This document shows, piece after piece, positions 1 to 18,111 of a stretch of 33,070 nucleotides of DNA. The number at the start of each line of letters is the position of its first letter. Position 1 is the first letter of the stretch. The position numbers were made by a program, and so were the translations under genes. The DNA comes from an uncultured Armatimonadia bacterium. GTDB lineage: Bacteria; Armatimonadota; Zipacnadia; Zipacnadales; UBA11051. Location: positions 303 through 33,372 of the forward strand of contig CAYSRY010000003.1 in assembly GCA_964433395.1 (NCBI GenBank), read 5' to 3'. Below the pieces are notes generated by a model that saw only the letters and a program-made list of their open reading frames with translations, was not told the origin of the DNA and made no database searches.

Positions 1-96
1 AGCGGCCAACAGACACAGGGGATTGTCCCAGTGCAGGTAAGCCGCTGATAGCGGTACATAGACAACAGGAATAGACACTCACTGTCAAATCTAACT

Positions 97-132
97 GGTC
101 TACGCTTCCATCGAATGGAGGGGGCGTAGACC
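97..132 (+). other. Imperfect GC-rich stem-loop, possibly the terminator of a gene ending at the left window edge
   Basis: GGTCTACGC (97-105) pairs perfectly with GCGTAGACC (124-132). An inner stem TCCAT (107-111) / ATGGA (115-119) closes a CGA loop. No U-tract follows. An open frame runs from the window edge to a TGA at 46-48. Confidence 0.3.
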
Positions 133-278
133 GAAGATAGACGGTAGCGATGCTGTATAACGATTTTCGAATCTGGGCTGGAGAGTGGGGTCGCATTAGC
201 CAGGATGTAAGTACCATTGGCTGCATGATTCAATTGTTGTTGAATTGAGCATTGAGCGACGTCTCGGGAGGCAGACTG

Positions 279-3200
279 ATGAGCTACTCCAACGTGACGC
301 GGCAGACTGGGCTTGCACTCTTCGCCATGATTTTTGTAGTATTGTGTTTTTCGGCGGGTGCATTTGCTGGGATGCAGATTGATCTCGGCAACTGTCGCGA
401 CGAGTTTGTCCAGCAAACCGCTGCAAGGGAACACATCAGCCTTGAAGCTGCAAACAGGCAAATTGCGCGGGTTGAACAATCAACCGGTAGTCGCATACTT
501 GAAGACTATGAGTTGCCCACAGGGGCCGTAGTAGATTATTACCGCGTTGACGGCACTGCAGAAGGACAACCTGTTGACTACAACGGATCGGCCGTTGTTA
601 CCACCCACGGGTCCCCTTTAGGGCAGTCATATATCCGGCAACAGCGCGTTCGCATGCCGCTGATCCAGCGGGTAGCCAAATGGCTCGGGGATATTTTCAC
701 CCCGAGCAATCAGGCAATATTGGTGCCAGTAGGCATGTTGGGAGCGGGGCAGTCGGCGGAGGCAGTAAGCGCGCTGGCTGGAGCGACTGACACGATTCGC
801 ATCGCGGTCATTGGCGCTGAATTTCCTCCCTGGGACGACAAACCCCCAACCGCCAGTGACTACTATCAAAGTTCCAGGACAGCATTTGGTGCGCTGGACA
901 CAACAGTGCGTGAGTATCCAATGTATTGGAACTCCGACACAAACTTTGATACGTCAGTGGGCGCAGGCGATGATACTAGTGGCAGCGAATGGGCGCCCAG
1001 TGAATATGCAGACAGCCCTGGCGGGCCGTTTGTTGGTGGTGCTGCACAAGGCCTGACGGGCCCCTGGAGCGGGACTACCTCCCCGAATAACGCTACTCCT
1101 CCGACGTCCTATTCAGCTGAGAATTCACGGCAGGGTTGGACGTCTTTCAATTTGCGCAACAGTTGGTGGAACAACCTCTTTAATCTCAGCAACTCCAGCT
1201 CCCTTACGAATTACTATTACGCCAATTCGCATGGCTTGAAGCGAATTGAGGGTGATCAGACATCAGTCATCGGCTGGGTGCGCAGTCATCACTACCTGGA
1301 TCGCAATCCCTATGGGATGAGCTATGATTACGTGCGCCAGCCGGGCACCCCACTTATTCGACCTACCACAGCCGAACCGGGGGATGCTGATTTCATAGTT
1401 CGCGCGAGCATTACTCAAGATGCACTCACCATACTGTTTGGGAAAGATGTCGCGCTCAATTCATCGAGTACATCGTCCACAACTCCATGGTATGTGAGCG
1501 CTATAAGTCTGACGGTTGAACAGGCCGTGTCTGATAATGAAAATCCCGGCACGGAACCGATCTGGAACGGAGCGGATACATCGACCACATTCAACCCGGC
1601 AACCGGCCATTTGGTAGATGCACGGGATAATCGACGCCATCAATGGACCAGTGCCGATTGGCATTATGAGTATGACCCTGATACTGATCCAGCAGAGACA
1701 GATGATGAAGAGATCGAACCATTCGCCATCTACACAGGTCAGGACTGGGGAATTCAAGTCACTCTTCGAAACGCCAGTACTGCAGCCGTCGAAGTGTGCA
1801 CATGGCAGCCAGGGGCGACACGTCGAGTAGGCGATACGATTGTATACCAAGGTTTTGTATACGACCTTCCGGCTGCCGCAGGAAATGCCTATCGCCCACA
1901 GAATGGCGGCTGCGCAGCGCTACCGAACACAACATTCCGCGAGGAAGATGTTTTAGCCAAGTCTGTCGCTCAGACTACGGCGTGGCAACAATATGAGAAC
2001 GGGTCAACAACAGGTTCAGTGCCCGATCAGCGCATGTTTGGTCAGGGCGTGACTGGCGCCGATGGCGATGACTATGGTCTAGGCAATCGGCTGAAGACAT
2101 TTGCCTTCTATCACAATTACTACTACCCAGATACAAGCGGCTATCAGCTACTCAGCTTGATGAATGCCAATGGCGCTCGAGATGACATTGGTGGTACTGT
2201 TGAGGGGACACGGGTCGCCCGTGCTTACCCATTCAATCTGAATGGTACTGCAAATGCAAACAGCGGATTTGACCTCGTAACACCTAGTGTCGTTGCCTTG
2301 GGGGCGCCTGCAAATCTCTCTCCTGGCTATGGGCATGATGCCAATGCAATGATGGTAGATGTGAACCGTGCGATGGCCGACCAAGGTATAAACCTTGGAT
2401 CTCTTGGCTACAATGGCGTGATTTATTTGTTCCCGAACGGAGGATCAGCCTCAGACGAGAGTGATCCGGGCATGCGCATGATTCCACGTGGTGGTGGCGG
2501 TGTCGCGCTTCTGCCCGAAAATGCCGGGCTCGGCCTCATAGCACATGAGACCGGTCATGCGTATTATGGATTTATAGATCTGTACGATCGGGACTTCTAT
2601 AATAACTACATGGTTCCACCGGCCGAACGACCGGATCCTCTGCATAAAATGTGTCTTGCCATGGGACCGTACAGTGTCATGGCCCGCGGCGCAAATGGTG
2701 TCCGCGTGGACGCATACACGAAAATCAATGCAGGATGGGCGACGCCCGTCGAAGTCACCGAAGATCGCTTGAACACGGAGATTCCACAGATTGAAGCTGA
2801 TCTGCGTGAGCCGGTTATTCTGAAATTGCCGGCAAACCCCTATGATATTCTGGAGGGCAACGCGCCCAGCACATGGAAAGAATATTTCCTCGTTGAGAAT
2901 CACAATAAAGCAGGATATTTCGGTGATGCAACCCCGCAAGGCCTCTACATCTACCATGTTGACGAACGCGGTGTGAAGTACATCCCGCGGAATCACCCGC
3001 AGGGGCAAGTTCAGGTTGATGAAGAAGCATTGCAGGTCACAATGGTGCAAGCAGACGGCCTGAAGCAGCTTGAAGAACTTGAAGTTGGCGACAGCATAAG
3101 TGCAAGCACTTGGGCGGGAGATCCGTTCCCCGGCACTTACAATATTCGGAAATTTTCCCAGCTTCCACAGCTCATAAGCGCAACAGGTTCCTGGTCAGCA

Positions 3201-6200
3201 ACTAGCGTTACCCATGGTAACACAATGACTGGCCCACTCGGGACCACAATCCTGCAGCCAAACACACAGGTTGACAGCTTCGCTCGCGTAGTTAACATCA
3301 GCGATCCGAGCCCAACCATGACCGCTGATATTTTTGTAAAACCCCGAGAAATTATCGTCACTGATGTTAGCCATGCACCAGGTGACCCGACAAGCGCCCA
3401 CCCGGATTATCCGGGCATCTATGATACACTCGCAGTTGGCTACGATGGCGCCGATGCGCGGCACATTGTGCAGGGCGCTGAGAAACAGGGCGTCCTTGCT
3501 ATCAAATTGGACAACCCCGAATACAATGGCTCAGACTTCAAATATGTATCAACTGATGATGTCGTCATTGACAGCATAAAAGTTCTGGAAAGTGGTACTT
3601 CACAACAGCAGGTTGGCGAACAACATCCAGTCGTTGAGCAAGCTTACCTTTACCTGGAAAGTAACGGGGTCGAGGGCCTGCAGACGACGTCAGGCAGTGC
3701 GGACGCGCGTATTGGAGTTACAACGCTTGGTTCACTTCAGGACGACTTTGGTGATAAAGAAGAATATGCGATATTCCGTAATCTCGGACTGAGTGTGCCA
3801 CTGAATAGCTCACGTATCATATATGTTGCATACGATATTCGGGCAAATGCTCAAATCACACCTGCAGTCACAGTGGGTGCTGAGCTCAGCGACTACACAT
3901 TCATAGTACCCGCAGCACCGGGCGCTGTTCAGGAACGAGCACGTCTAGGTGCGAAGTGGGCATTCGGAAATCACCGCTTCCCAATCGTTGGTACTACGGC
4001 AGTGACAGTCGAACGCCCCGACGAGCTGCAGATCACCGCCAATCCGCCTGCGCCAGGGGCAGGCGTCGTTGCACCATCTGCTATCAAGCAGGGCATGGCA
4101 AATGTTCCGTTGATGCAGATGCGCATGCATTCAACGGACGATGAAGTCATTGTCGGTCGGATCAAAGTTGACGCAACCAGCGGAGCTGGATATGCAGATG
4201 CCCTCGAGGATCTTACCGGCATCAAATTGTGGCTTGATGTAAATAATGATGGTATTGCAGATCCTGGCACTGATGTCCTGTTGTCAGAGGCCAACTTCAT
4301 TGACATGTCACCGAACAATCCGCAGGCATTGCTGCAGCTTGATGATCTGAGTGATCCCGCGCTGCGCACCATTGTTGCGGGCCAGGATGAATACTGGTTG
4401 CTGACGGTTGACGTTGAGCAGGATGCACCAGGAGCTCAGATTGAGCTGCGGATAGAGAACGTAGGGTATATATCACTCATAACAAACCCGAGTCAGCCTG
4501 GTATTGCAGACTCAGTTGATGGCTCAAACTTCCCGCTTGTGAGTGGTACAGGTAACATCATCGCGCGGCCAAATCCGCCGGTTGCTCCGTTCAGTCCGGT
4601 CAATGACGCGCGCATAACCGATCATTCCCCAACGTTTACCTGGGGAGCGGCAACTGATAATGCACCGAATCCGACGCCGCAGGCCGAGCTCCATTATGAA
4701 CTGAAAATCGCAAATGATCCGCTGATGAATAACATCATTTTCGAATTCAGCACGGCCGCGAACCCGGGCGAAACAACATTCTCATTCCCCGACGGCACAG
4801 AGTTGCCAGACCCAGGCGACTCCGATGTAGAGTTTTACTGGGTACTTTATACGGTGGATGGGGATGCCTGCAGTTCAGATGCTACCAATATCATGCACTT
4901 TACCCTTGTTGGTAACCAGGCACCAAATATTCCAATGTCCGGTTTTTGGCCCAACAATGACATAACCATAGATGATAACACTCCAACCTGTGTCTGGAAT
5001 GCCGTCAGCGATCCGGACCCGACTGATGCGCCGGCGAATATCCACTATGTTGTCCAGTTCAGCAACAGTGGATCAACTCCAGCACTGTTCGATGCTGACC
5101 CGGACTACGAATACACCAGTGCAGCTGGCAATGCTTCGGTCACACCGACTGTACCGCTCGCTGATCTCACGAAATGGTATTGGCGCGTGAAGGCCGTCGA
5201 TGACAGCGGTCTCGCATCTGGATGGAGTCCGATCCAGGTTTTCAATGTGGATATTAACAATCAGCCACCAAGCCTCGCAGCACCCATCAGTGAGCCGATG
5301 TTAGCTCCAGTGTATGGGACATTGGCCACATATTATGAATTGCAGATCCAATATACAGATCCCGAAGGCGATGCACCAGGGAATGTCCGAGTCACAATTG
5401 ACATGGGCACTGCTAATGAGCAGACCTTGACAATGGCAGCTGTGGCTCCAGTAACGCCAACTACCAACGATTACAGAAACGGCGTCCGTTACGCAGTGGG
5501 TATCTCCGGAGCTGACCTCGGCTATGGTATGCACAGCTGGGTTTTCTGGACTGATAACGGAGCGCGCCTGCCCAACAACGCCCCAGATACTGGTGCAGGA
5601 CCAGTTGTCGGATCAGCAGCCGCAATCCGCCTCACCGACATCGCATGGGCCAACGTGACCGGCTACGTAGAGACACCGACAGCCAATGTCTACGTCGAGG
5701 TTTCGGACGTAGATGAAAACGCCGACCCTGCGGCTGTAGACAATATTCTTGTGACCCTCTACCAGTCAATTTCCGGGGGTGATCTGGAGAGTGTCACCCT
5801 CGTCGAAACGGGGAACAATACCGGCGTGTTCCGCGGTCAAATTCAACTGCGAGGAATGTCGGGCACCGCATACGACGGTACGCTCAACGTTTCCGGCGGT
5901 CCCGGTATTCAGATCGTTGCCCAATACATCGACAAAGATGATACCGGCAATCCTGGACTTGCAGATAATGCATCGCCGGACGCTCCATTCGTTGTCGCCA
6001 ATGTCACTGATAGTTACGCCCCAGCCGCTGTGACTGATTTCACAGTCCTAAGCGGTGATGAGGGAACATCGGCTATTGCAGATTGGACATGGGATGGTGT
6101 CAATGGCTACGATGAGGCGGCTGAGATTGATGTCGTCGGCTACAGGGTCTACTACGCTACTGCCGACTTCACCAATACGTCAGACGCCGGTGTGCACATG

Positions 6201-6272
6201 TGGACTTCCCTTGTGCCAGCGGGTACTGACACGGGACACGAATTACTGGCTTGCTATCGTGGCCGTCGATGA
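279..6272 (+). CDS. Giant secreted M6 (immune inhibitor A-like) zinc metalloprotease, N-terminal reading-frame segment
   Basis: The ORF runs 252..6272. The best start is ATG 279, preceded by GGGAGG (266-271). The N-terminus has a signal peptide (LALFAMIFVVLCFSAGAFA). The zinc motif HETGH is at 2544-2558, followed by IDLYDRD, matching the M6/InhA HExxH...DxYD pattern. IRIAVIGAEFPPWDD resembles the M6 N-terminal strand. Three tandem FN3/Ig-like modules lie at about 4560-6240. The frame ends in nonsense (GHELLACYRGRR*) in the middle of an FN3-like module. Confidence 0.85.
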   Translation: MSYSNVTRQTGLALFAMIFVVLCFSAGAFAGMQIDLGNCRDEFVQQTAAREHISLEAANRQIARVEQSTGSRILEDYELPTGAVVDYYRVDGTAEGQPVDYNGSAVVTTHGSPLGQSYIRQQRVRMPLIQRVAKWLGDIFTPSNQAILVPVGMLGAGQSAEAVSALAGATDTIRIAVIGAEFPPWDDKPPTASDYYQSSRTAFGALDTTVREYPMYWNSDTNFDTSVGAGDDTSGSEWAPSEYADSPGGPFVGGAAQGLTGPWSGTTSPNNATPPTSYSAENSRQGWTSFNLRNSWWNNLFNLSNSSSLTNYYYANSHGLKRIEGDQTSVIGWVRSHHYLDRNPYGMSYDYVRQPGTPLIRPTTAEPGDADFIVRASITQDALTILFGKDVALNSSSTSSTTPWYVSAISLTVEQAVSDNENPGTEPIWNGADTSTTFNPATGHLVDARDNRRHQWTSADWHYEYDPDTDPAETDDEEIEPFAIYTGQDWGIQVTLRNASTAAVEVCTWQPGATRRVGDTIVYQGFVYDLPAAAGNAYRPQNGGCAALPNTTFREEDVLAKSVAQTTAWQQYENGSTTGSVPDQRMFGQGVTGADGDDYGLGNRLKTFAFYHNYYYPDTSGYQLLSLMNANGARDDIGGTVEGTRVARAYPFNLNGTANANSGFDLVTPSVVALGAPANLSPGYGHDANAMMVDVNRAMADQGINLGSLGYNGVIYLFPNGGSASDESDPGMRMIPRGGGGVALLPENAGLGLIAHETGHAYYGFIDLYDRDFYNNYMVPPAERPDPLHKMCLAMGPYSVMARGANGVRVDAYTKINAGWATPVEVTEDRLNTEIPQIEADLREPVILKLPANPYDILEGNAPSTWKEYFLVENHNKAGYFGDATPQGLYIYHVDERGVKYIPRNHPQGQVQVDEEALQVTMVQADGLKQLEELEVGDSISASTWAGDPFPGTYNIRKFSQLPQLISATGSWSATSVTHGNTMTGPLGTTILQPNTQVDSFARVVNISDPSPTMTADIFVKPREIIVTDVSHAPGDPTSAHPDYPGIYDTLAVGYDGADARHIVQGAEKQGVLAIKLDNPEYNGSDFKYVSTDDVVIDSIKVLESGTSQQQVGEQHPVVEQAYLYLESNGVEGLQTTSGSADARIGVTTLGSLQDDFGDKEEYAIFRNLGLSVPLNSSRIIYVAYDIRANAQITPAVTVGAELSDYTFIVPAAPGAVQERARLGAKWAFGNHRFPIVGTTAVTVERPDELQITANPPAPGAGVVAPSAIKQGMANVPLMQMRMHSTDDEVIVGRIKVDATSGAGYADALEDLTGIKLWLDVNNDGIADPGTDVLLSEANFIDMSPNNPQALLQLDDLSDPALRTIVAGQDEYWLLTVDVEQDAPGAQIELRIENVGYISLITNPSQPGIADSVDGSNFPLVSGTGNIIARPNPPVAPFSPVNDARITDHSPTFTWGAATDNAPNPTPQAELHYELKIANDPLMNNIIFEFSTAANPGETTFSFPDGTELPDPGDSDVEFYWVLYTVDGDACSSDATNIMHFTLVGNQAPNIPMSGFWPNNDITIDDNTPTCVWNAVSDPDPTDAPANIHYVVQFSNSGSTPALFDADPDYEYTSAAGNASVTPTVPLADLTKWYWRVKAVDDSGLASGWSPIQVFNVDINNQPPSLAAPISEPMLAPVYGTLATYYELQIQYTDPEGDAPGNVRVTIDMGTANEQTLTMAAVAPVTPTTNDYRNGVRYAVGISGADLGYGMHSWVFWTDNGARLPNNAPDTGAGPVVGSAAAIRLTDIAWANVTGYVETPTANVYVEVSDVDENADPAAVDNILVTLYQSISGGDLESVTLVETGNNTGVFRGQIQLRGMSGTAYDGTLNVSGGPGIQIVAQYIDKDDTGNPGLADNASPDAPFVVANVTDSYAPAAVTDFTVLSGDEGTSAIADWTWDGVNGYDEAAEIDVVGYRVYYATADFTNTSDAGVHMWTSLVPAGTDTGHELLACYRGRR

Positions 6273-9200
6273 TGCTGGAAATCCAACCGGTCCGGTTGGT
6301 GTGACAACAGTCAATGTCTTCACCAGTGACGGTCAGCCACCTGTGATTTCTAATCTGTTCCCTGCGAATGGAGCAACGGAATTACCGCTTGGTACGAGCA
6401 TTAGCTTCCGCGTCTCAGACATGGGGAGTGGAGTTGATGCCAGTAGTCTGACAGCCAGTGTGAATGGTGTCGACGTGGCGGCAGATTTCGTGACATCAGC
6501 CGTTTCTGGCAACAATATCGTTGACTTCACATATACACCAACCACTCCATTTGCATGGAATGACACAGTCACCGTTGAGATAGGTATCAGTGACGGGGAC
6601 GCAAACGGTCCGACAAACGCAAATTGGAGCTTCAATGTTCTTGCGGATCACGTCAATCCTGAGGTCACTGATCTGTCACCTGCTGATGGTGCGACCAGTG
6701 TCAATGTGGCTAACAGCATATCGTTCCACCTCACTGACGACAAATCTGGCGTCAATCTCGCGATAGATGCTGGATACATCAATCCGGCCAGCAGCAGTGT
6801 CACGGTTTTGTTTAACGGTGTCGACGTGACCGCTGCCGTAGCTGCCCAACAGGTTGACGGTAATCGTGACATTCTCTGTACATATGATCCGCCAACCTCA
6901 CTACTGTACAACAGCACCTATCAAGTGGATGTGACTGTACAAGATGTCGCTGGCAATGCGACACCCGCAGCCACTACAACGTGGACCTTTGACACGCCGA
7001 CCGATTCCACTGGTGTGACAGTCGACCAGTTCACCCCGGCCAGAGACGCAACTAATGTTCCGGTGACCACAACTATCAGCATGCGACTGAATGATGCGCA
7101 GTCTGGTGTGAATGCGGGCACAATCAAGCTCTGGGTGAACGGGAGCGAAGTAACAGGTTCGATCGTCACGAACGTACTTGGGAGTGCAATCGAGGTTGTG
7201 TACGTTCCCACTGCAAACCTCCCGTATGAGACTGACATCTTCGTTCGCGTGTATGCCAAAGATAATGTGGACAACGAGACAGACATGACGTACAAGTTCA
7301 CAACTGAGGCTGCGCCGACATATGTCATCTCCGGCACAATCCGTACCGCACTCGACCAGCCGGTTGCCGGTGCTCTCGTGGAGTGCAGCGATGGACACAG
7401 CACAACTACCGATGGGAATGGCGCGTACTTGATGACCGATGTCTTGGCAGGCACCTACACCGTTACGCCATCCAAGCCACATTGGACATTTGCACCAACC
7501 TCACAGGACGTGACGGCCGGTCCAGAAGATGTTGCAGGTGTGAACTTCACAGGTACTGAGATAACCTATGTCCTCTCCGGCTATATTGTGGATCGTGACG
7601 ACAACGGTGTTGAAGGCGTCCAGGTGTGGTATGGCGAGCAGTACGTGGAGACGGACGCGAATGGCCGTTACGATATCGCAGGTTTGCGCGTAGGTCAGTA
7701 TACGATTACGCCTACTCTGCAATATCATCACTTCGATCCGGTAAATCGTGTGGCTGAAATAGTCGATGCTGACGTGCTCGTCGGAAATATCATTGCAATT
7801 CCCAACACGTTTAGTATATCGGGTACTATTTATGATAGTTCTGGTTCCCGTGTGCAGGGCGTGGAAATAAGCTATGATGACAACGTGGCTATTACAAATG
7901 AAGCGGGGCAATACACACTTAGCAACGTTGCGATCGGCACGCATACCTTAACGGCTTCAAAGCTAGGTTACAGCCTGCTTCCCGCATCGTTGGAAGTCAC
8001 TGTCCCACCAGATGTAACTGGCGCAAATTTCACGGCCTATACCGAGTTGAGCAATTCATTCTCCTCGGGTACAAATCTGATCGGCGTGCCAGGCAATCCA
8101 ATTGACCCGAATCCAGTGACGGTATTTGATACTCTTGACGTCGCGCGTTGGGATCCGGATGCATCGCCTGGAGCGTATACATTGGCAACCACTTCCGCAA
8201 CCACGAATTTCATGCGGGTTCGCCCTGGGGCTGGCTTCTTCGTCCGGTACGCTAACGCCAAAACCCTGCGTTTCGCCGCAGAGAGCACACCGAGTGACAG
8301 AGCTCTCAGTTTTGGTCTTGGCGTTGGGTGGAACATGATTGCCAATCCGTTTACGAATCCGACTAAATTTGCCGACTTCCAACCAACCATTGCTGGTGGT
8401 ATTCAACCATATGCGTTCATCTACAATCCGAGTACCCATAGCTACGAACTGATCTCGGCACGATCCGGCATAAACGTGCAGCGTGACAATATCCAGCCGT
8501 GGGAAGGTGCGTGGGTGATGTGTGCCGCTGGTGGGTGTTCGCTGAGCGTCTCGCCATCCGTTGGCGTCACATCGATCGACAGTAAACCCGAGGCGGCGGA
8601 CATATCCACCGGGTACGTAATCCCAATCATGGCAACGTCCGCAGGGTGCAGCGACACAAGTAGTGTTGCAGGTGTGGTCCCAGGTGGTGTAGACTACGTC
8701 ATACCAAACCCGCCCACTGCACCGGAAACTGTGGACGTATATTTCACAGCAAAAGATGGACAGCGGCTGGCACACGATGTACGAAGCGAAACCACCGGTA
8801 CGGACAATTTTGAGTTCGTGGTGAGTAGCGCAGTTGGTGCTGGAGATGTAACGGTGATGCTTCCGGATCTCAGCAGTGTCCCGGCACAGTATGACGTACT
8901 GCTGACTGATGTGGATGCAGACAAGACGGTGTATGCGCGCACAATGCAGGCCTATACTTATCGCGCAACTGACGCCGTGTCCACACGGCATTTCCGCATC
9001 GACGTCACACCAAGATCGATGGCGAGTCTCACGGTCTCGACCGCTGCAGCCACTCAGCAGGCAGGCGGGGCGGTTATAACGTACAGCGTCTCACAGAGCT
9101 GTAATGTGAACATGACCGTCCGCAATATGGCAGGCCGCGCCATCAAGGTAATCAGCAGTGGCAAACTGGTTGCAGCAGGTGCAAATACAGAGGTATGGAA

Positions 9201-9318
9201 CTTGAGCAACAATGCGGGCGCCAAAGTTCCTGCAGGCTCATATCTGATCCAGATAGAAGCTGTTACAGGCAGTGGCCAACAGGCGAGAGCCTTGACCCGG
9301 TTAGATATAAACCGCTAA
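6055..9318 (+). CDS. C-terminal reading-frame segment of the same giant surface protease (Ig-like repeats, carboxypeptidase-regulatory-like repeats, FlgD-Ig/T9SS-like C-terminal domain)
   Basis: The ORF runs 6055..9318 in the +1 frame relative to 252..6272. The first ~60 codons (MMREHRLLQIGHGMVSMATMRRLRL...) do not look protein-like. Protein-like sequence starts at NYWLAIVAVDDAGNP (6241 onward). Three Big_5/SbsA-Ig-like repeats lie at about 6334-7318 (PPVISNLFPANGAT, NPEVTDLSPADGAT, TVDQFTPARDAT). Three CarboxypepD_reg-like repeats lie at about 7321-8040 (ISGTIRTALDQPVAGA, LSGYIVDRDDNGVEG, ISGTIYDSSGSRVQG). The C-terminal beta-sandwich reads ...VWNLSNNAGAKVPAGSYLIQIEA... Confidence 0.8.
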   Translation: MMREHRLLQIGHGMVSMATMRRLRLMSSATGSTTLLPTSPIRQTPVCTCGLPLCQRVLTRDTNYWLAIVAVDDAGNPTGPVGVTTVNVFTSDGQPPVISNLFPANGATELPLGTSISFRVSDMGSGVDASSLTASVNGVDVAADFVTSAVSGNNIVDFTYTPTTPFAWNDTVTVEIGISDGDANGPTNANWSFNVLADHVNPEVTDLSPADGATSVNVANSISFHLTDDKSGVNLAIDAGYINPASSSVTVLFNGVDVTAAVAAQQVDGNRDILCTYDPPTSLLYNSTYQVDVTVQDVAGNATPAATTTWTFDTPTDSTGVTVDQFTPARDATNVPVTTTISMRLNDAQSGVNAGTIKLWVNGSEVTGSIVTNVLGSAIEVVYVPTANLPYETDIFVRVYAKDNVDNETDMTYKFTTEAAPTYVISGTIRTALDQPVAGALVECSDGHSTTTDGNGAYLMTDVLAGTYTVTPSKPHWTFAPTSQDVTAGPEDVAGVNFTGTEITYVLSGYIVDRDDNGVEGVQVWYGEQYVETDANGRYDIAGLRVGQYTITPTLQYHHFDPVNRVAEIVDADVLVGNIIAIPNTFSISGTIYDSSGSRVQGVEISYDDNVAITNEAGQYTLSNVAIGTHTLTASKLGYSLLPASLEVTVPPDVTGANFTAYTELSNSFSSGTNLIGVPGNPIDPNPVTVFDTLDVARWDPDASPGAYTLATTSATTNFMRVRPGAGFFVRYANAKTLRFAAESTPSDRALSFGLGVGWNMIANPFTNPTKFADFQPTIAGGIQPYAFIYNPSTHSYELISARSGINVQRDNIQPWEGAWVMCAAGGCSLSVSPSVGVTSIDSKPEAADISTGYVIPIMATSAGCSDTSSVAGVVPGGVDYVIPNPPTAPETVDVYFTAKDGQRLAHDVRSETTGTDNFEFVVSSAVGAGDVTVMLPDLSSVPAQYDVLLTDVDADKTVYARTMQAYTYRATDAVSTRHFRIDVTPRSMASLTVSTAAATQQAGGAVITYSVSQSCNVNMTVRNMAGRAIKVISSGKLVAAGANTEVWNLSNNAGAKVPAGSYLIQIEAVTGSGQQARALTRLDINR

Positions 9319-9398
9319 ACGGGACATGCTCTTTTTCTGCCGATCTGGCACAACTGAAGCACATATCGTGAGACCGATTATTGAGGAGTGAATGCAGC

Positions 9399-9815
9399 AT
9401 GGCCAAAAGCAGCCTGTGGAAGCTACTGCTCGCGATGGGGATCATCGCGTTGGCCCTGACCGGCCTTTGCGGCTGTGGCTCGGACGAAACGGGAAATGAT
9501 CCTGATCCCGGCACAATTGCGGGAACTGGGAAGGTCACTGGTGAAGTATTGTATTTTTCAACCAGTGTTGGGCTTGGAGGCGTTGAGATCGAAATCGGTG
9601 GCCAGACAGCTATCACTGACAGCAGTGGTCACTTCGAGGTAATCAACATCCAGCCGGGTGTCAGCCAGCAGGTCATCGTTAGGCCACCCAATTGGCTGGC
9701 GCTGCCTACGTCGGATCCAATCCTTGTGAATGTTTTCGCCGACCAGACAACGGTTCTGAGCGCCCCGATATTGCTGATCGATTCGGGCATCCAGCCGCCT
9801 GGACCGTGGTCCTAA
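9399..9815 (+). CDS. Small lipoprotein with one carboxypeptidase-regulatory-like beta-sandwich domain
   Basis: ATG 9399 lies 10 nt downstream of GAGGAG (9383-9388). The signal peptide and lipobox-like segment read MAKSSLWKLLLAMGIIALALTGLCGCGS. GKVTGEVLYFSTSVGLGGVEIEIGGQTAITDSSGHFEVINIQPG has the CarboxypepD_reg pattern also seen in the giant protein. Confidence 0.7.
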   Translation: MAKSSLWKLLLAMGIIALALTGLCGCGSDETGNDPDPGTIAGTGKVTGEVLYFSTSVGLGGVEIEIGGQTAITDSSGHFEVINIQPGVSQQVIVRPPNWLALPTSDPILVNVFADQTTVLSAPILLIDSGIQPPGPWS

Positions 9816-9885
9816 GATTGCAAGGCGGAGTTGCGAGCATCTCTCGCAGCTCTACTGCATTGCAAATCCCAGATAAATGCAAACT

Positions 9886-9919
9886 GGCGCCGCCTGCGCA
9901 CTGTGCATTGGGCGGCGCC
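9886..9919 (+). terminator. GC-rich hairpin after the lipoprotein gene (weak intrinsic terminator or attenuator)
   Basis: GGCGCCGCC (9886-9894) pairs perfectly with GGCGGCGCC (9911-9919) across a 16-nt loop. It is followed by ACTTTCTGTGG, which is a poor U-tract. Confidence 0.4.
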
Positions 9920-9941
9920 ACTTTCTGTGGCGGGACTGCAA

Positions 9942-11096
9942 ATGAAAAGTAGCTTCTCCTCCGTTTCATTGGTGTTGGCGCTTTTCTACGCGATGGCGCC
10001 GCTGCGCGTGGATGCCACCGATTGGCCGACGCTCAGGCGTGATACCATGCGTTCCGGCATCTCCACTGATACCATCTTCCCCCCCATCCTGAGTGAAACG
10101 TGGTCTGTGCGAATTGGAAGCAGCGTTGATGCTTCACCGGCAGTCACGCAGGGCCGGCTCTATGTAGGAAATGCTGAGGGCGAGGTAATCTGCCTGAACG
10201 TAGCGGATGGGGCCAGCATCTGGCGAACTTCAACGCAGGGTGCCGTCGTGTCGTCACCCGCTGTCTATAATGGCACCGTGTTTGTTGGTTCCGTCGATCG
10301 CTGTCTCTATGCATTCGATGCGCTGAGTGGCAAAATCAGATGGCGTGTGCGTACATGGCTCCCAGTGGTTGCTTCGCCTCTGATATTGAACCGGTGTGTG
10401 TATATTGGCTCAATGGACGGCTCATTCAAATGCGTGAATGCTGCGGATGGAAACATTATCTGGGAGCAGAGCGCAGGGCCCGTCAGTGGTAGTGCGGCGG
10501 GATCAGAAAACGTTGTGTATTACGGGGACGAAGAGGGGAATGTTTTCGCTCGACAGGCTGATGATGGCGAACTCCTGTGGTCGGCGAAAGTTGAAGGTAG
10601 TATTATCCGGGCCCCGGTCGTCACCGAAACGCGCGTCATCTTTGGCGTAATGTCACCTTCGGCGCTGCGGGCGCCGAAAATAGATTATCTCATTGCATAT
10701 GAGCGCAACACTGGTGAAAAGATGTGGGCGCATAACGATCAGCATTCGGTGATGCACACGCCAATCGCTGATGCGGGGAGATTGTATTACGCGACAGTAA
10801 GCGGCTATACGTCGACGAGTACTCTCTTCTGCTGCCAGGTTGACGATGGAAGGCAATTGTGGAAGCGGAGCCTCGCAGGAGTCGCCGATAGTTCCCCCGT
10901 GCTGACTGCCGAATATTTGCTGATGGGTGTAAATGACGGTATATTCCATGTGTATGAAAAATCGGATGGCGCTGAGGTGCACAGTGTGCATGTTGGGGCG
11001 AAGATTTTCTCCACGCCCGCAATTGTGGATGGTGCGGTGTATTTCGGCTCGGGTGATGGTTTGCTGCATTGTCTCCGTTGTTCGGACAAACCCTGA
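9942..11096 (+). CDS. Secreted PQQ-like (BamB-like) beta-propeller repeat protein
   Basis: ATG 9942 gives the signal peptide MKSSFSSVSLVLALFYAMAPLRVDA. Propeller blades recur in the pattern xxVYVGSxDGxLYAxDAxxGxxxW (LYVGNAEGEVICLNVADGASIW, VFVGSVDRCLYAFDALSGKIRW, VYIGSMDGSFKCVNAADGNIIW, VYFGSGDGLLHCL). Confidence 0.8.
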   Translation: MKSSFSSVSLVLALFYAMAPLRVDATDWPTLRRDTMRSGISTDTIFPPILSETWSVRIGSSVDASPAVTQGRLYVGNAEGEVICLNVADGASIWRTSTQGAVVSSPAVYNGTVFVGSVDRCLYAFDALSGKIRWRVRTWLPVVASPLILNRCVYIGSMDGSFKCVNAADGNIIWEQSAGPVSGSAAGSENVVYYGDEEGNVFARQADDGELLWSAKVEGSIIRAPVVTETRVIFGVMSPSALRAPKIDYLIAYERNTGEKMWAHNDQHSVMHTPIADAGRLYYATVSGYTSTSTLFCCQVDDGRQLWKRSLAGVADSSPVLTAEYLLMGVNDGIFHVYEKSDGAEVHSVHVGAKIFSTPAIVDGAVYFGSGDGLLHCLRCSDKP

Positions 11097-11113
11097 AAAC
11101 CGGGATTTTTCAG

Positions 11114-12502
11114 CTATTTCCCAATGCAGAATCGCTCAAAAATGCGATTGATGATCTCCTCTGGCAGGCATTTGCCAATGATCTCGTCCAAGCTATCCAG
11201 CGAAGCTCGCAGGTCGGATGCCACGAATTCAACGGACTGCCCAAGTTCGATCGCTTTAGCCGCATCCGACAGCCCCTTGTCAGCTTGCTGCAATGCCTGC
11301 TCGTGACGGACGTTGGTAACCACAGTCTGGCCGTTGACACTCCCTGCGCCGTTCGACACAGATGATGCAATCATTTGCTCCAAGTCCTGGATGTGTGTGC
11401 CCACCTGTGCTGAGAGCCAGACGACAGGCGCAGACGTGCATGCGGCAACACTATCCGCTGAGGTGCCTGCCGGCAAATCTTCTTTGTTCATTACCACGAT
11501 ACTGCGTGTTGCATCAAGGCCTGCAAGTAGAGCCAGATCATCTGGATGCAGCGGTTGCGAACCATCAACGACAGCGAGCGCCAGATCAGCTCTGGCTATG
11601 GCCTGGCGGCTCCGATTGACGCCTTCAGCTTCGATGACGTCTTGCGTTTCGCGAATCCCAGCTGTATCAGCCAGACGAATGGGCACACCCGCGAGCGTCA
11701 TCTCATCCTCAACCACATCTCGAGTAGTTCCGGGGATGTGTGTAACGATGGCTCGATTGGCTCGCAGGAGTGCGTTCAGCAGGCTTGATTTGCCGACATT
11801 CGGTCTGCCAACAATCGCAACCATTACACCGTCCCTAAGTGAGCGCCCGCGCGCGGCAGTATCAAGAAGACGCGAAATCTGTTCGCGGAGCATCAGAACG
11901 TGGTGGCTTATCTCATCACGGGAGACAAGCTCTATATCGTGTTCGGAAAAGTCTATTGATGCCTCAATCTGAACAAGCAGCGAGATGATATTTTCGCGGA
12001 ATGAGTTCACTTCGTCTGACAGTTGGCCGGAAAGTTGTGAGATGGCTGCGGCCTGGCTTTCCTCAGTCTGTGCGTTAATCTCGTCGGCAACTGCTTCTGC
12101 TTGCGCCAGGTCTATGCGGCCAAAGTAATAGGCCCGTTTGGTGAACTCACCAGGATCCGCAAGCCGCGCACCAGCGTCCAGCATCAGCCGCAAGGCTGTG
12201 CGAACCGGTACGATGCCGCCATGGCAGTTGATTTCCACAACGTCTTGCGTTGTATAGGTGTGGGGAGCGCGCATCACTGTTACAATGACCTCGTCAACCA
12301 CACGTGCGCCGTCAATCAGATGGCCGTAGCAAGTCGTGAACGATCGTAGTTGACAAAGTGCGCGATCGCGTCGCGCGGGTTGAAAATGCTTGTCGACGAT
12401 CGCCAATGCATCCGGACCGCTCAGACGAACGATGCCAATGCCCGCTCGGCCCGGTGGAGTCGAAACCGCCGTAATCGTATCTTCAAAACGAGGTATATCC
12501 AT
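11114..12502 (-). CDS. mnmE: tRNA modification GTPase MnmE (TrmE)
   Basis: The protein starts MDIPRFEDTITAVSTPPGRAGIGIVRLSG at ATG 12502; the longer track ORF is an upstream extension. G-domain motifs are GRPNVGKSSLLN, DTAGIRE and NKED. The C-terminus is the diagnostic FCIGK. Confidence 0.93.
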   Translation of the reverse strand: MDIPRFEDTITAVSTPPGRAGIGIVRLSGPDALAIVDKHFQPARRDRALCQLRSFTTCYGHLIDGARVVDEVIVTVMRAPHTYTTQDVVEINCHGGIVPVRTALRLMLDAGARLADPGEFTKRAYYFGRIDLAQAEAVADEINAQTEESQAAAISQLSGQLSDEVNSFRENIISLLVQIEASIDFSEHDIELVSRDEISHHVLMLREQISRLLDTAARGRSLRDGVMVAIVGRPNVGKSSLLNALLRANRAIVTHIPGTTRDVVEDEMTLAGVPIRLADTAGIRETQDVIEAEGVNRSRQAIARADLALAVVDGSQPLHPDDLALLAGLDATRSIVVMNKEDLPAGTSADSVAACTSAPVVWLSAQVGTHIQDLEQMIASSVSNGAGSVNGQTVVTNVRHEQALQQADKGLSDAAKAIELGQSVEFVASDLRASLDSLDEIIGKCLPEEIINRIFERFCIGK

Positions 12503-12640
12503 ATTTGTATTGTGAGACTTTCCAAAGAGTTTTTCAATATGGAGGAGCAACCAAACGCGTAGATAGGCTGCTGGAGGAAATGACAATTCTGCCTTCGTTT
12601 TATAGCAGACGAATTTCCCGTTCACATTGTTTGGCAGGCC

Positions 12641-13516
12641 TTAAAGGTTGGCCAGAACAATCGCGACTACCGCAATGCCTATCCCTGCCCAGCCAAGGCG
12701 GCCCAGTTTTTCGTCCCAGACGAATGCAGCGAATGCGGTAGCCAGCGATAGAGCTACGGCTGCAAGAACCGGAAAAACCACTGAGGCGAGGAACAGATCA
12801 AGAACGTATAGTATCAGAAAGTTGGAAATCGCATTAGATGCACCGGCAGCAAGGCCCCAGCGAAGCTCGGAAGTGGTCATACCGTGCCGTCGCGTGCACA
12901 TCCAATACACCAAGCATAGCAGCGCAGCGATCGAGAAAAGAGTGGCCAGGTACAGAGGCCGTTCAGCGATGAGCTGCGTTGTTTGGAACCACTTGCCGAC
13001 AAGCAGACAAGCACCATTGAAAATGAACAGCCCAGCGAGTGTGGTGGTGTGCCGTAAGTCGAATTTGGGTGAATCTGCGCCATGATCAAAAGTAAGCATC
13101 GGCAATGCCACAAGCGCCAGTGCAATACCCAAGGTCTTCACCATGCCGGGGGTCTCGCCCCATATGAGCACTGCGCCCAGCAGCGGTACCAGAACAGAAA
13201 GTCTTACTACGGCCATCGAAACAGCAACGCCCTTGAAATTCATGGCTGGCAGTAGTAAGAAGTATGTCGTCACATAGAGACAGCCGCCGATGAGGCCGAT
13301 CTGAACTGCAAGCGAGGCGTAGGAAGTGTGCGATACCGCGGTGAAAACCCAGAAACACAGGGATGCAAATGTGTAGTTCACCACGCCTACAGCCACAGCA
13401 TCATGCCCATGCCTTTGAGCCCCCCGCACGAACAGAGAGAATGCTGTATTGAACAATATTGTCACTGCGAAAAGCAACATCTCAGCAGTCGCCACCGACG
13501 TTTTTGCGGGCGACAA
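12641..13516 (-). CDS. DMT-superfamily (EamA-like) polytopic permease
   Basis: The 291-aa ORF is almost entirely hydrophobic with about 10 predicted TM segments, the length and layout typical of EamA/DMT carriers. The start is uncertain: TTG 13516 or ATG 13480. Confidence 0.6.
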   Translation of the reverse strand: MSPAKTSVATAEMLLFAVTILFNTAFSLFVRGAQRHGHDAVAVGVVNYTFASLCFWVFTAVSHTSYASLAVQIGLIGGCLYVTTYFLLLPAMNFKGVAVSMAVVRLSVLVPLLGAVLIWGETPGMVKTLGIALALVALPMLTFDHGADSPKFDLRHTTTLAGLFIFNGACLLVGKWFQTTQLIAERPLYLATLFSIAALLCLVYWMCTRRHGMTTSELRWGLAAGASNAISNFLILYVLDLFLASVVFPVLAAVALSLATAFAAFVWDEKLGRLGWAGIGIAVVAIVLANL

Positions 13517-13590
13517 CTGCGCCCGAGATGATTGTCTGATGCATTGTGGGAGGACTCTTTACTCTTCCGGCGAATATCCAACTACGCGGC

Positions 13591-13610
13591 GACTATCGCC
13601 GACTATCGCC
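13591..13610. repeat. Perfect tandem duplication of a 10-mer (GACTATCGCC x2, followed by a partial third copy GAC) in the divergent intergenic region
   Basis: Read directly: gactatcgcc gactatcgcc gaca at 13591-13614, between the DMT gene (-) and the Lon-like gene (+). Confidence 0.9.
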
Positions 13611-13651
13611 GACACATCATAACACAGTCCAGGTGAAAGTGGTAAGCATAC

Positions 13652-16111
13652 ATGCGGGAACTCACCCCAAAGCAACTGAGGAAAGAGTGTGCCCTCAGCC
13701 TGTTTGATTTTGAGACTACCGAAGAGCTAAGTGATCTGCGCAATGTCATAGGACAACGCAGAGCGATGGGTGCACTCGAGTTCGCTGCCAATATTGGTAA
13801 TGATGGTTACAATGTATACGTCATGGGGCAGGTCGGGACTGGGCGATCATCAAGTTCGCGCAACTTCCTGGTTGCTCGTGCGAAACAGGAGCCAGTTTCT
13901 GATGACTGGTGCTATGTGTACAATTTTGCTGATCCTCGTGTGCCGAAAGCCGTCAACCTTCCTGCTGGGCATGGCGTCGAATGGCAAGCGACCATGCAGA
14001 AGGTTACTCGCGAATTGCTCAGCCAGGTCATGGGGGCTTTCGAAAGCGATGAGTACAACGAGAAACGCGACGACATTTTGCGCAGTTTTCGCGAAGAGCG
14101 CAATCTCGAACTCCAGGAGTTTGAGCGGGTTGTCGAAGAAGCCGGATTCACCCTCGGGCGTTCGCCGGCTGGCCTCATCGTTGCGCCCGCAGCAAACGGC
14201 GAAGTCATGGATCCGCAGGAATATCGAAAACTGACCGAAGAGCAGCGCAAAGCGCTCGAGGACAAGCGTCAGGAATTGCAGGGAATGCTGGCAGAGATCA
14301 TGCGGCGAGGCCAGCGTGAAGAGAAACTCACTCGCCAGCAGGTGCAGGCGTTGGACCGCGAGATTGCGCGCACTGTCATTGAGCCGCTACTCGAAGAAAT
14401 CCGGGAGAAAAATCGGGACTACGAGGCTGTTCTCAGGCATATTGATGACGTCGAAAATGATCTGCTCGAGAACATCAGCCGTGTCAGGCAGGCCACCGAA
14501 GATGGCGATGGCCAGACGCAGACGCCATTCGGTCCTCAGGGTAGTTCTGCAGGCGCAGTGCCGATGATGGATCGCTATCAGGTGAATGTCCTCATCAACA
14601 ATGCTGAACTTGAGGGCGCACCGGTCATTTTTGAAGCTAATCCCACACTGGAGGGGCTGACTGGTGAAGTCGAGCACCAGACCCAGATGGGAGCGCTCGT
14701 CACTGATTTCACGATGATCAAACCTGGTGCTCTCCACAAAGCCAACGGCGGGTATCTGCTGCTGGAAGTCCATCAGTTGCTCACGCGCCCTTACGCATGG
14801 GACGCGCTCAAACGTGCCATCAAAAATGAGCATATTCGCATTGAGTCGCTTCGCGACCAGTACCGATTCATATCTACAGTCAGTCTCGAGCCGGAACCAA
14901 TTCCATTGCAGGTCAAAGTCGTACTCATCGGCAACCCGATGCTCTATTACCTCCTCTACGAATATGACGAGGATTTCCGTAAGCTTTTCAAAGTCAAAGC
15001 TGATTTCGATAGCCAGGTACCGCGTACCGCCGCGACTTCACGTCAGTATGCCGCACTTGTTGGTGAGATATGCCGCCGTGAAAAACTCGCACATTTCTCG
15101 CCTGAGGCGGTTGCGAAAATCGTTGAGCATGGCAGCCGGCTCGCAGGCGATCAGCGCAAATTGAGCCTCAATTTCTCCACGATCAGCAATCTGGTCAAGG
15201 AATCGGCGTACTGGGCATCTACGGCCAAGCACGAGATCGTCGGTGCCGAGGATGTTGCAGAAGCACTCAGCCAGCAGATCTATCGCTCGAGCCGCATTGA
15301 AGAACGACTGACTGAGATGATTGCCGACGGCACCATCATGGTCGACGTCAAAGGCGAGAAGACGGGGCAGATCAACGGACTTGCAGTCATTCAGCTTGGC
15401 GACTACATGATGGGCAAGCCCAGCCGCCTGACCTGCAGGACATTCCCGGGACGCTCTGGTGTCGTGAATCTGGACCGAGACGCCAAAATGACTGGCAGAA
15501 TCCATGACAAAGGCCTGCTCACTATCACCGGTTTCCTTGGTGAACGTTTCGCCCAGGAAACTCCGCTCTCGCTTTCTGGGCACATATCGTTCGAACAGCT
15601 CTATGAGCAGCTTGATGGCGATTCCGCCTCCTCCACCGAGCTTTACGCGCTCTTGTCCAGTATTGCTGGCGTACCTATCAGGCAGGGCATTGCCGTCACT
15701 GGTTCGGTCAACCAGCTCGGCGAAGTACAAGCCATCGGCGGCGTCAACGCAAAGATCGAAGGATACTATGCAGTTTGCAAGGCCATAGGCCTGACAGGTG
15801 AACAGGGAGTCATAATCCCTGAAGCCAACCGTCCGCACCTCATGCTCAATGACGAGGTCATCAATGCAGTCGAAAGTGGTAAGTTTCACGTCTGGTCAGT
15901 GAAACACATTGACGAGGGAATAGAGATACTGACAGGCATCAAAGCCGGCCGACGTGGCAAATCTGGCCGGTACCCGAAGGGTACCATTAATGCACGTGTC
16001 CAGGCACGACTGGATGAATTTGCAGACACACTGAAGACTTCCGGAAAACCAGAAAACAACAATAGTAAGGCTGAAGAGAGCGGCAAGACAAACAATAACA
16101 AAGAAGAATAG
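13652..16111 (+). CDS. Lon-like serine protease of the LonC type (degenerate AAA+ module with a coiled-coil insertion and a Ser-Lys protease domain)
   Basis: The Walker-A-like motif GQVGTGRS (13826-13849) has Arg where the invariant Lys should be. The Walker B position reads GGYLLLEVHQL and lacks the DE pair. A charged coiled-coil insertion lies at about 14050-14400. The protease domain has GDSAS (15617-15631) and GGVNAKIEG, the Ser-Lys dyad context. Confidence 0.8.
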   Translation: MRELTPKQLRKECALSLFDFETTEELSDLRNVIGQRRAMGALEFAANIGNDGYNVYVMGQVGTGRSSSSRNFLVARAKQEPVSDDWCYVYNFADPRVPKAVNLPAGHGVEWQATMQKVTRELLSQVMGAFESDEYNEKRDDILRSFREERNLELQEFERVVEEAGFTLGRSPAGLIVAPAANGEVMDPQEYRKLTEEQRKALEDKRQELQGMLAEIMRRGQREEKLTRQQVQALDREIARTVIEPLLEEIREKNRDYEAVLRHIDDVENDLLENISRVRQATEDGDGQTQTPFGPQGSSAGAVPMMDRYQVNVLINNAELEGAPVIFEANPTLEGLTGEVEHQTQMGALVTDFTMIKPGALHKANGGYLLLEVHQLLTRPYAWDALKRAIKNEHIRIESLRDQYRFISTVSLEPEPIPLQVKVVLIGNPMLYYLLYEYDEDFRKLFKVKADFDSQVPRTAATSRQYAALVGEICRREKLAHFSPEAVAKIVEHGSRLAGDQRKLSLNFSTISNLVKESAYWASTAKHEIVGAEDVAEALSQQIYRSSRIEERLTEMIADGTIMVDVKGEKTGQINGLAVIQLGDYMMGKPSRLTCRTFPGRSGVVNLDRDAKMTGRIHDKGLLTITGFLGERFAQETPLSLSGHISFEQLYEQLDGDSASSTELYALLSSIAGVPIRQGIAVTGSVNQLGEVQAIGGVNAKIEGYYAVCKAIGLTGEQGVIIPEANRPHLMLNDEVINAVESGKFHVWSVKHIDEGIEILTGIKAGRRGKSGRYPKGTINARVQARLDEFADTLKTSGKPENNNSKAEESGKTNNNKEE

Positions 16112-16135
16112 GTTTGTACCGCTTAGACCTCTGAT

Positions 16136-16165
16136 AGGGGCGGCCTTATGGTACGCCCCTTTTTG
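16136..16165 (+). terminator. Rho-independent terminator after the Lon-like gene
   Basis: AGGGGCG (16136-16142) pairs with CGCCCCT (16154-16160) across an 11-nt loop. It is followed directly by TTTTT (16160-16164). Confidence 0.75.
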
Positions 16166-16202
16166 GACGTGTACGCGATAAACTTGCGATGTAGGTGACA
16201 CT

Positions 16203-17096
16203 ATGGATAGGCCTGAAAAGCCAGTTATTCGCGTTTCTAAGGCTTGGCTGGAGATGCTCAACCGTGTGAAAGACCAGCCAGGTCGTATTGTTATAATCGG
16301 CGCAGCTGACAGTGGCAAAAGTGTGCTTGCCCAATGGCTCCGGACAAAACTACCAGAATGGGGCTCCACCGCTGCAATTGATGGCGACGTCGGACAGTGC
16401 GAATTCGGTCCTCCAGGTGTCGTTACCAACTGGCTTGTTGGCCAACAGATGCGCCATTCATATTTTGTTGGTGACACAACTCCTGTTAGTCGGCCTGCCG
16501 CAGTTCTGAGTGCATTTGCGCGAAGCCTGCGCGACGTCGAAGCCTCCGGCGCCCGTTTCACCGTTATCAACACCACCGGCTATGTCGATGGTGACGGAGC
16601 AGTAGCACTTAAAACTGCCAAAGTTGAGATGCTCGCACCTGCTCACATCATCGTTCTTGGAGATAGTTCTGCTATGCGCAGGCTCCGCAAATGTTGGCAG
16701 GGGTACGAGGATGTCACAGTCACACCGGTTGGCCTAGCCGATAATCTCCGTACCAAGACCGCCGCTGAACGTCGCGAGAACAGGCGTGAACGCTTCGCTG
16801 ATGCCCTGCAGGGAAGCAATATGCGGTGGCTTGCACTGCGTGACATTGCGGTACAGACTATAACCGATGCGCCGCCGATTTCACCCGATGGAGGCCCATT
16901 GCTGGGCTTTGTCGATGAGCACCGTCGTCTTGTCTGTATTGGTATATTGCATGCAATTGACCATAAATCGCGCCGCTTGCTTGTCTACGCACCGGAGATC
17001 GTCGAGAGTGCGACTGGTGTTATTTTCGGAAATCTGTCACTGAATTCCGGTGGTTTCGAGATCGGACGCAGCAGGAGCGAAGGAAAAACACGATGA
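16203..17096 (+). CDS. Clp1/Grc3-family P-loop polynucleotide 5'-hydroxyl kinase-like protein (COG1341-like)
   Basis: Walker A is GAADSGKS (16299-16322). IDGDVGQCEFGPPGVV resembles the Clp1 D-x-D-x-GQ...PG segment. FTVINTTGYVDG resembles the Clp1/Grc3 I-N-T-x-G-W/Y Walker B region. The length (297 aa) matches archaeal-type minimal Clp1. Confidence 0.6.
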   Translation: MDRPEKPVIRVSKAWLEMLNRVKDQPGRIVIIGAADSGKSVLAQWLRTKLPEWGSTAAIDGDVGQCEFGPPGVVTNWLVGQQMRHSYFVGDTTPVSRPAAVLSAFARSLRDVEASGARFTVINTTGYVDGDGAVALKTAKVEMLAPAHIIVLGDSSAMRRLRKCWQGYEDVTVTPVGLADNLRTKTAAERRENRRERFADALQGSNMRWLALRDIAVQTITDAPPISPDGGPLLGFVDEHRRLVCIGILHAIDHKSRRLLVYAPEIVESATGVIFGNLSLNSGGFEIGRSRSEGKTR

Positions 17097-18058: not shown

Positions 18059-18111
18059 TCGCAGTAAGGTCAGACATTGGTTGAACCTTCGTTATATAGG
18101 GTGCGTCTACC

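Follow-up and report, generated by a model that had tools for sequence, protein, structure and literature searches.

Two open reading frames (ORFs), 252..6272 and 6055..9318, overlap in the window, a DNA stretch of 33,070 nt from an uncultured Armatimonadota bacterium, and raise the question of whether the locus holds two genes, a recoding site or a single broken gene. As judged from the sequence, the two ORFs together make up one gene of this bacterium, which encodes a giant exported protein. Rather than a recoding site, the locus is probably a recently formed pseudogene or truncation allele. The interruption, as read from the MAG consensus, is probably a real inactivating or truncating deletion in one exported-protease gene of ~3,020 aa.

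Reading frames and domain composition

Both ORFs were located on the + strand, in frames 0 and +1, respectively, with an overlap of 218 nt, as described in the initial annotation. The first ORF had 2006 codons when counted from the first TTG, and the second had 1087 codons. The gene start, which had been placed at 252, was moved to ATG 279, the true start of the first ORF, which was preceded by GGGAGG at 266-271 and from which the NCBI and Logan gene calls both opened with MSYSN (Table 1). Frame 0 terminated with ...VVGYRVYYATADFTNTSDAGVHMWTSLVPAGTDTGHELLACYRGRR and a stop codon, and the frame +1 translation ran ...CQRVLTRDTNYWLAIVAVDDAGNPTGPVGV... The tail of ORF 1 consisted of 14 out-of-frame residues (DTGHELLACYRGRR, 6228-6269) followed by TGA 6270. 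The NCBI annotation listed two proteins, P0004 (1,997 aa) and P0016 (1035 aa, start TTG 6211). By inspection, no GGAGG-like element was present 5' of GTG 6055 or TTG 6211, and no signal peptide was found in ORF 2, which began partway through an FN3 module.

Table 1. Features of the split gene and their positions in the window
Feature	Position	Strand	Basis or remark
Shine-Dalgarno-like GGGAGG	266..271	+	7 nt 5' of ATG 279; read off the sequence
ORF 1, 1997 aa, N-terminal two thirds of the giant protein	279..6272	+	Gene calls, profile match, alignment to the intact allele
FN3 module bearing the lesion	6012..6342	+	First part in frame 0, last part in frame +1; Pfam fn3
Chance 5' extension of ORF 2, 57 codons open in frame +1	6055..6225	+	No SD, no signal peptide
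Non-synonymous pair V/I 6147 and D/N 6165	6147..6165	+	78 and 60 nt 5' of the deletion, respectively
Deletion junction, between T6224 and A6225	6224..6228	+	Pairwise DNA alignment, blastn parsing
Frame +1 continuation, residues 1991-3020 of the intact protein	6226..9318	+	Alignment to the intact allele

ORF 1 was composed of a Sec-type signal peptide, an M6-like HExxH metalloprotease core (HETGH...DLYD), and several FN3/Ig-like modules. The frame +1 part contained the end of the FN3 module, three Big_5 and three CarboxypepD_reg matches, ~330 aa without a family match, and a C-terminal FlgD_ig-like domain. The TIGR03296 (M6) profile matched ORF 1 with 54.5 bits against a curated cut-off of 110.8, and only profile positions 162-286, in its C-terminal half, were aligned. 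The HExGH...G..DLYD motif was invariant across the giant-protease family, and no solved structure in the PDB was matched by the ORF 1 sequence. Within the searches made, the family was confined to Armatimonadota-type MAGs; in the literature, general Armatimonadota papers were found, and none on this family.

The orthologues were 2,193-4,116 aa long, and the junction region was in a single frame in 14 of 14 orthologous loci from Armatimonadia, Zipacnadia, and WS1 MAGs, none of which showed a split at the junction. The alignment with orthologues that the initial annotation had proposed as a check gave one uninterrupted ORF and not two separate proteins. Since the two open frames each exceeded 1,000 codons and jointly matched single proteins of 3,000-4,100 aa, the arrangement was far beyond chance. 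The C-terminal module of ~670 aa was kept in every full-length orthologue and was conserved in dozens of Armatimonadota proteins, which suggests that export or anchoring probably depends on it.

An intact allele and the 23-nt deletion

The Logan contig SRR27370453_933 (64,820 bp, run SRR27370453) was 99.1-99.3% identical in DNA sequence to the window across 26.6 kb, with 99.3% identity for window positions 1-19815. In this sister strain, the gene was a single ORF of 3,020 codons (P0015, L001:858-9920), which bore out the earlier proposal of one gene of about 3,000 codons split inside an FN3 module. P0015 clustered with the window's own ORF at 90% identity, and its uninterrupted 3,020 aa read ...VPAGTQSVEITGLTRDTNYWLAIV... 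across the junction. When compared with residues 1-1983 of the intact allele, ORF 1 showed 3 amino-acid differences. The gene as a whole differed by 28 synonymous and 5 non-synonymous substitutions; 14 synonymous and 2 non-synonymous differences and zero stop codons fell in the frame +1 part.

Pairwise DNA alignment and blastn showed that 23 nt of the intact allele (ACTCAGAGCGTCGAGATAACAGG) were absent from the window between 6224 and 6225. The placement was ambiguous over a 3-nt ACT microhomology (6225-6227), so that the break could lie as far as between 6227 and 6228. As 23 nt is 2 mod 3, the loss removed seven codons (QSVEITG) and shifted the frame by +1. The frame switch had been expected within 6225-6243, of which the left edge proved to be the right location, and had been ascribed to a single +1 change or 1-nt indel; such an indel, which would give for example GH-D/N-YW, was rejected in view of the 23 missing nucleotides. 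In addition, frame +1 had been regarded as gibberish until 6240, whereas meaningful sequence (LTRDTNYW) was read from 6226. A 7-nt tandem duplication (GACACGG/GACACGA) was considered as the source of the +1 shift and rejected, as GACACG-G-GACACG was also present in the intact allele.

A total of 13 indels separated the window from the sister strain in 26.6 kb. The 12 others were 1-3 nt long and all intergenic, which indicates that neither assembly was indel-prone and leaves the 23-nt loss as the sole indel in coding DNA. No direct repeats of at least 6 nt flanked the deleted segment in the intact allele; the collapse of a direct repeat by a k-mer assembler was therefore not a ready explanation and was rejected.

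The V/I 6147 and D/N 6165 substitutions were the only ones within 1014-6866 (5.8 kb); clustered within 80 nt of the deletion, they could mark a poor-quality patch. The window's own genome (3.67 Mb, 484 contigs, 93.3% complete) contained only one copy of the gene. It is a fragmented MAG, and such a consensus can hold a minority variant or a local mis-assembly. A search of genome and metagenome contigs for other carriers of either allele (GTGCCAGCGGGTN{0,23}ACTGACACGGGACACG) gave 0 matches, with the window's near records possibly hidden there, and these contigs yielded no further, independent copy of the deleted allele. Exact-product look-ups gave matches for a 138-aa lipoprotein and another protein encoded at the locus, and no match for P0004 and three other window proteins.

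Damage to the FN3 module

The module that carries the deletion was compared with its intact counterpart. The intact module (L001:6591-6944) matched Pfam fn3 (PF00041) with 26.0 bits (cut-off 25), and its AF2 model had a pLDDT of 82.5, with tandem FN3 structures as the top Foldseek matches. The window's version failed where the intact module passed both the Pfam gathering threshold and the FN3 fold: the read-through across both frames scored 15.0 bits, and the frame-0 piece alone gave no fn3 match, as anticipated by the view that this piece is incomplete without the +1 continuation. The lost QSVEITG was one whole β-strand (strand 135-139 of the AF2 FN3 model) and aligned with the conserved strand QTYTVTGL. 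Frame +1 had been thought to supply the expected end of the module; this part of the description was given up, as the read-through module was one strand short. Even a ribosomal shift into frame +1 would leave the domain unrestored, given the lost strand and the drop in score (26.0 bits intact, 15.0 bits read through).

Proposed course of events and alternative explanations

In the preferred explanation, a real deletion of 23 nt between 6224 and 6225 would have taken seven codons and moved the frame by +1. Replication slippage or microhomology-mediated end joining would be the expected cause of a deletion bounded only by ACT. Translation from ATG 279 would then stop at TGA 6270 after the 14 aberrant residues, and the predicted product of 1,997 aa would retain the signal peptide and the putative catalytic core and lose ~1,030 residues at its C-terminus. 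Most likely, the 1,030 codons that follow would not be translated, as they lack start and export signals of their own. The fully open downstream frame and the mostly synonymous substitutions point to a recent event. Of the causes named in the initial annotation, recent inactivation by mutation and faulty assembly are the likely ones.

An artefact of assembly, consensus or binning is possible, if rather unlikely. In this case, the gene would be intact in the organism, and the gap would come from local mis-assembly, from a patch of low coverage, or from the assembler's choice of a rare or chimeric path through the reads. The MAG is in 484 contigs, the deleted allele was met only once, and the only two substitutions in 5.8 kb lie next to the deletion; the zero decay of the downstream frame fits no real inactivation as well as a very recent one. 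However, the coding DNA was otherwise free of indels relative to the sister strain, no repeat of at least 6 nt was available for collapse, and a loss of 23 nt is atypical of short-read or homopolymer error. In addition, De Bruijn assemblers output only k-mers that are found in the reads. The deletion is probably present in the cells and not in the assembly only.

If the deletion is real, its functional consequence would be inactivation or truncation. A functional short allele, in which the 1,997-aa product would still be an active secreted protease, is an improbable sub-case of the real deletion and shares part of its probability. ORF 1 retains the SD, the start codon, the signal peptide, and the invariant HExGH...G..DLYD motif, whereas the protein would end in a broken FN3 module with aberrant residues and would lack the C-terminal module that no full-length orthologue has given up. 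It is still less likely, and seems doubtful, that the deletion is a real polymorphism under selection, in which one strain lost or truncated the 3,020-aa surface protease and its 99.3%-identical sister keeps it. If so, the strain could benefit by evading a phage or predator that recognises the surface protein, or by 'cheating', with the extracellular protease as the public good.

Programmed +1 ribosomal frameshifting, or another form of recoding that joins both frames, is effectively excluded. The bare overlap of two long frames and the intact downstream frame would suit it, but the gene was in one frame in the 99.3%-identical strain and in all orthologues, and the frame change was made by a deletion that took a β-strand, so that the shifted product would still be defective. 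Furthermore, 6225-6243 contained no slippery or hungry-codon motif, no in-frame stop, and no upstream SD-like stimulator; the absence of a homopolymer and of a slippery heptamer at the switch had been recorded before, and inspection of ACTGACACGGGACACGAATTACTGG revealed no shift-prone element. The earlier judgement that programmed frameshifting was the less likely cause was thereby upheld. Two genuine genes translated separately, a protease and an independent β-sandwich protein, have next to no likelihood in spite of the two NCBI entries, as GTG 6055 and TTG 6211 lack an SD, ORF 2 lacks a signal peptide though all its domains are of extracytoplasmic types and starts inside the FN3 module, and the orthologues are unsplit.

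For annotation, the NCBI proteins of 1,997 and 1,035 aa should be merged into a single disrupted gene, which does not belong among recoding candidates. An apparent 'frameshift' in raw sequence can conceal a larger deletion, and here the anatomy of the lesion was settled by a near-identical independent assembly, with no need for reads. The intact allele of 3,020 aa is the form to be used in studies of these giant Armatimonadota proteases, an uncharacterised family.

Comparison with known systems

The locus resembles +1 frameshift sites of the prfB/RF2 type in its overlapping frames with the downstream frame at +1. Unlike that type, it has neither a conserved shift site nor an SD placed upstream of an in-frame stop or hungry codon, the orthologues of the giant protease are unshifted, and the shifted product would be short of a structural strand. 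It is well matched to the bacterial pseudogenes or truncation alleles that arise by short microhomology-flanked deletions, in which an out-of-frame deletion interrupts a conserved ORF, a near-identical strain carries the intact allele, the downstream frame is open, and the second piece has no start signals. When compared with these, the present case is special only in its size of 3,020 codons and in its evidence, which comes from a MAG consensus. The encoded protease is similar to the M6 metallopeptidases (immune inhibitor A/InhA-like, TIGR03296) in its HExxH zinc site followed by G..DLYD. It differs from them in the addition of more than 12 β-sandwich modules and is ~4 times longer.

Gene structure and start signals

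The two long overlapping ORFs in different frames that the initial annotation had described were recovered with the same coordinates and an overlap of 218 nt. The frame 0 translation ended in ...GYRVYYATADFTNTSDAGVHMWTSLVPAGTDTGHELLACYRGRR*, and the frame +1 reading was ...CQRVLTRDTNYWLAIVAVDDAGNPTGPVGV.... The true start of ORF 1 was ATG 279, with a GGGAGG ahead of it. ORF 1 contained an HETGH motif within a match to an M6 metalloprotease profile (TIGR03296), which was partial and, at 54.5 bits, below the cut-off, and a PDB sequence search with ORF 1 gave no match. ORF 2 carried three Big_5 and three CarboxypepD_reg domains, followed at the C terminus by an FlgD_ig-like domain. Its start fell within a domain, neither a Shine–Dalgarno sequence nor a signal peptide was found for it, and its expression as a functional protein is unlikely.

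Features of the split protease gene and related proteins
Feature	Position	Strand	Frame	Product	Source or remark
ORF 1	252..6272	+	0		
ORF 2	6055..9318	+	+1		
GGGAGG	266-271	+			precedes true start of ORF 1
P0004 (ORF 1)				1,997 aa	NCBI
P0016 (ORF 2 as annotated)	start TTG 6211			1,035 aa	NCBI
P0015 (intact allele)				3,020 aa	Logan assembly

Comparison with the intact allele

The 90%-identity cluster of ORF 1 contained three members, P0004, P0016, and P0015, the last of which read ...VPAGTQSVEITGLTRDTNYWLAIVAVDD... at the site. The DNA of P0015 was recovered through an exact match to the neighbouring 138-aa lipoprotein, on contig SRR27370453_933 (64,820 bp; locus L001, with the remaining part, L080, from a second look-up). 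When the window was aligned with this DNA, exactly 23 nt, ACTCAGAGCGTCGAGATAACAGG, were missing between T6224 and A6225. Therefore, the lesion was not the 1-nt indel proposed initially, and was instead a 23-nt deletion that removed seven codons and shifted the frame, the +1 relation arising because 23 = 2 mod 3. A 7-nt tandem duplication (GACACGG/GACACGA) was rejected as the cause, since the same repeat was present in the intact allele.

The triplet ACT was located at both edges of the deleted segment (GGtACT / GGACT), and the two triplets may have mediated loss of the 23 nt, by replication slippage or through microhomology-mediated joining. Translation from ATG 279 would run into 14 aberrant residues and end at TGA 6270, giving a 1,997-aa product that would still have its signal peptide and catalytic core. 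About 1,030 residues would be lost from it, namely those of the Big_5 and CarboxypepD_reg modules plus the C-terminal domain.

Origin of the deletion

The 26.6 kb common to the window and the Logan contig shared 99.1-99.3% identity, with about 250 substitutions and 13 indels. Twelve of these indels were 1-3 nt long and all intergenic (window 62-256, 20478-20516, and 21688-21777), and the 23-nt deletion was the sole indel in coding sequence; both assemblies were therefore otherwise clean of coding indels. No repeat of at least 6 nt was found flanking the deleted segment, so that a k-mer assembler had nothing to collapse across. We regard the deletion as probably real. An origin of the gap in the assembly rather than in the organism, which the clean coding DNA and the missing collapse route argue against, is the less likely reading, although the source genome was a 484-contig MAG (93.3% complete), no second instance of the deleted allele was found in genome and metagenome contig collections, and the only substitutions in 1014-6866 were two non-synonymous ones (6147 and 6165) lying 60-78 nt upstream of the deletion. 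Between the gene and the intact allele, 28 substitutions were synonymous and five non-synonymous, and no stop codon was found in the 1,030 downstream codons. The inactivation, if real, would be very recent.

The substitutions at 6147 and 6165 were G/A differences (V/I and D/N; 78 and 60 nt upstream, respectively), and the pair may stem from a single mutational event, from an imported patch, or from low sequence quality there. Divergence from the sister strain was strongly mosaic: window 1-1013 and 19000-24000 contrasted with 1014-6146, which had no substitution, and the kb-bins of kb 0 and kb 19-21 each had about 28-34. This mosaic suggests recombination between strains. Ahead of the protease gene, the intergenic DNA at 62-256 differed from the sister strain by seven small indels and many substitutions, and was far more variable than the gene itself.

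Loss of a β-strand from the FN3 module

The deleted residues, QSVEITG, were aligned with the conserved strand (Q/K)T(Y/L)T(V/I)xGL of orthologous modules. An AlphaFold2 model of intact-allele residues 1851-2150, calculated from 13 sequences translated from retrieved loci, had a mean pLDDT of 82.5, exceeding 90 near the deletion site, and its top PDB matches were tandem FN3 domains. In this model, the deleted residues (134-140) were located on a β-strand (135-139) flanked by strands 123-130 and 146-155. The intact module scored 26.0 bits against Pfam fn3 (cut-off 25), whereas the window read through the deletion scored only 15.0 bits. The frame 0 piece alone gave no fn3 match and thus was not a complete module, and frame +1 did not supply the expected end of the module as first supposed. 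Thus, even if ribosomes shifted by +1 here, the module produced would lack a core strand. Programmed frameshifting, already judged less likely in the initial annotation, failed all three tests: the two-frame arrangement was not conserved in the sister strain or orthologues, the site had no shift motif, and the shifted product was incomplete by the fn3 scores and the model.

Orthologues across the junction

The two frames were joined with a four-letter codon solely as a search query (P0003), and residues 1780-2300 were compared with a large protein collection. These residues were 93-100% covered by single proteins of 3,295, 3,454, 3,372, 4,116, 3,030, and 3,223 aa at 32-45% identity; therefore, the orthologues continue uninterrupted across the junction. 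In a full-length alignment, conservation was collinear over the whole protein, signal peptide and final residue included (35-52% identity). In a GTDB genome scan, the family was found in MAGs named Armatimonadia, Candidatus Zipacnadia, candidate division WS1, and Armatimonadota. A 300-aa junction-centred query gave one tblastn segment in one frame, within a long open frame, in all 14 loci containing the homologous region, and these loci and the 3,020-aa allele bore out the proposal that the ORFs are halves of one gene. Two genuine separate genes were rejected, as the orthologues were unsplit and start signals were absent for ORF 2.

In the orthologous MAG loci L010, L018, L005, and L021, the open frame at the junction region began well inside the protein-matching stretch (11091 vs a match start of 3001 in L010). 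These late starts could represent other frame breaks in giant MAG genes or matches into tandem paralogues.

C-terminal block and neighbouring gene

The C-terminal block (residues ~2350-3020; window 7300-9318) contained three CarboxypepD_reg domains, about 330 aa without a Pfam match, and the FlgD_ig-like tail. It was common to dozens of other Armatimonadota proteins, and many loci matched this block only; it is therefore probably required for export or surface attachment. The matching proteins, otherwise dissimilar, came from Fimbriimonadales, Chthonomonadales, Abditibacteriales, and WS1 (23-30% identity), and the block may serve throughout the phylum as a surface-anchoring or secretion module. 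A second giant gene lay immediately upstream of window position 1 (L001:1-623) and ended about 230 nt ahead of the protease gene start; its 2,180-aa product contained both CarboxypepD_reg and FlgD_ig domains. The locus therefore comprises tandem paralogous giant surface proteins with a common C-terminal module.

The frame split itself brings nothing new: a member of an uncharacterised family of giant M6-like proteases has either been disrupted by an ordinary frameshift or been misassembled. In practice, the annotation needs correcting, and studies of the family can draw on an intact allele of 3,020 aa.
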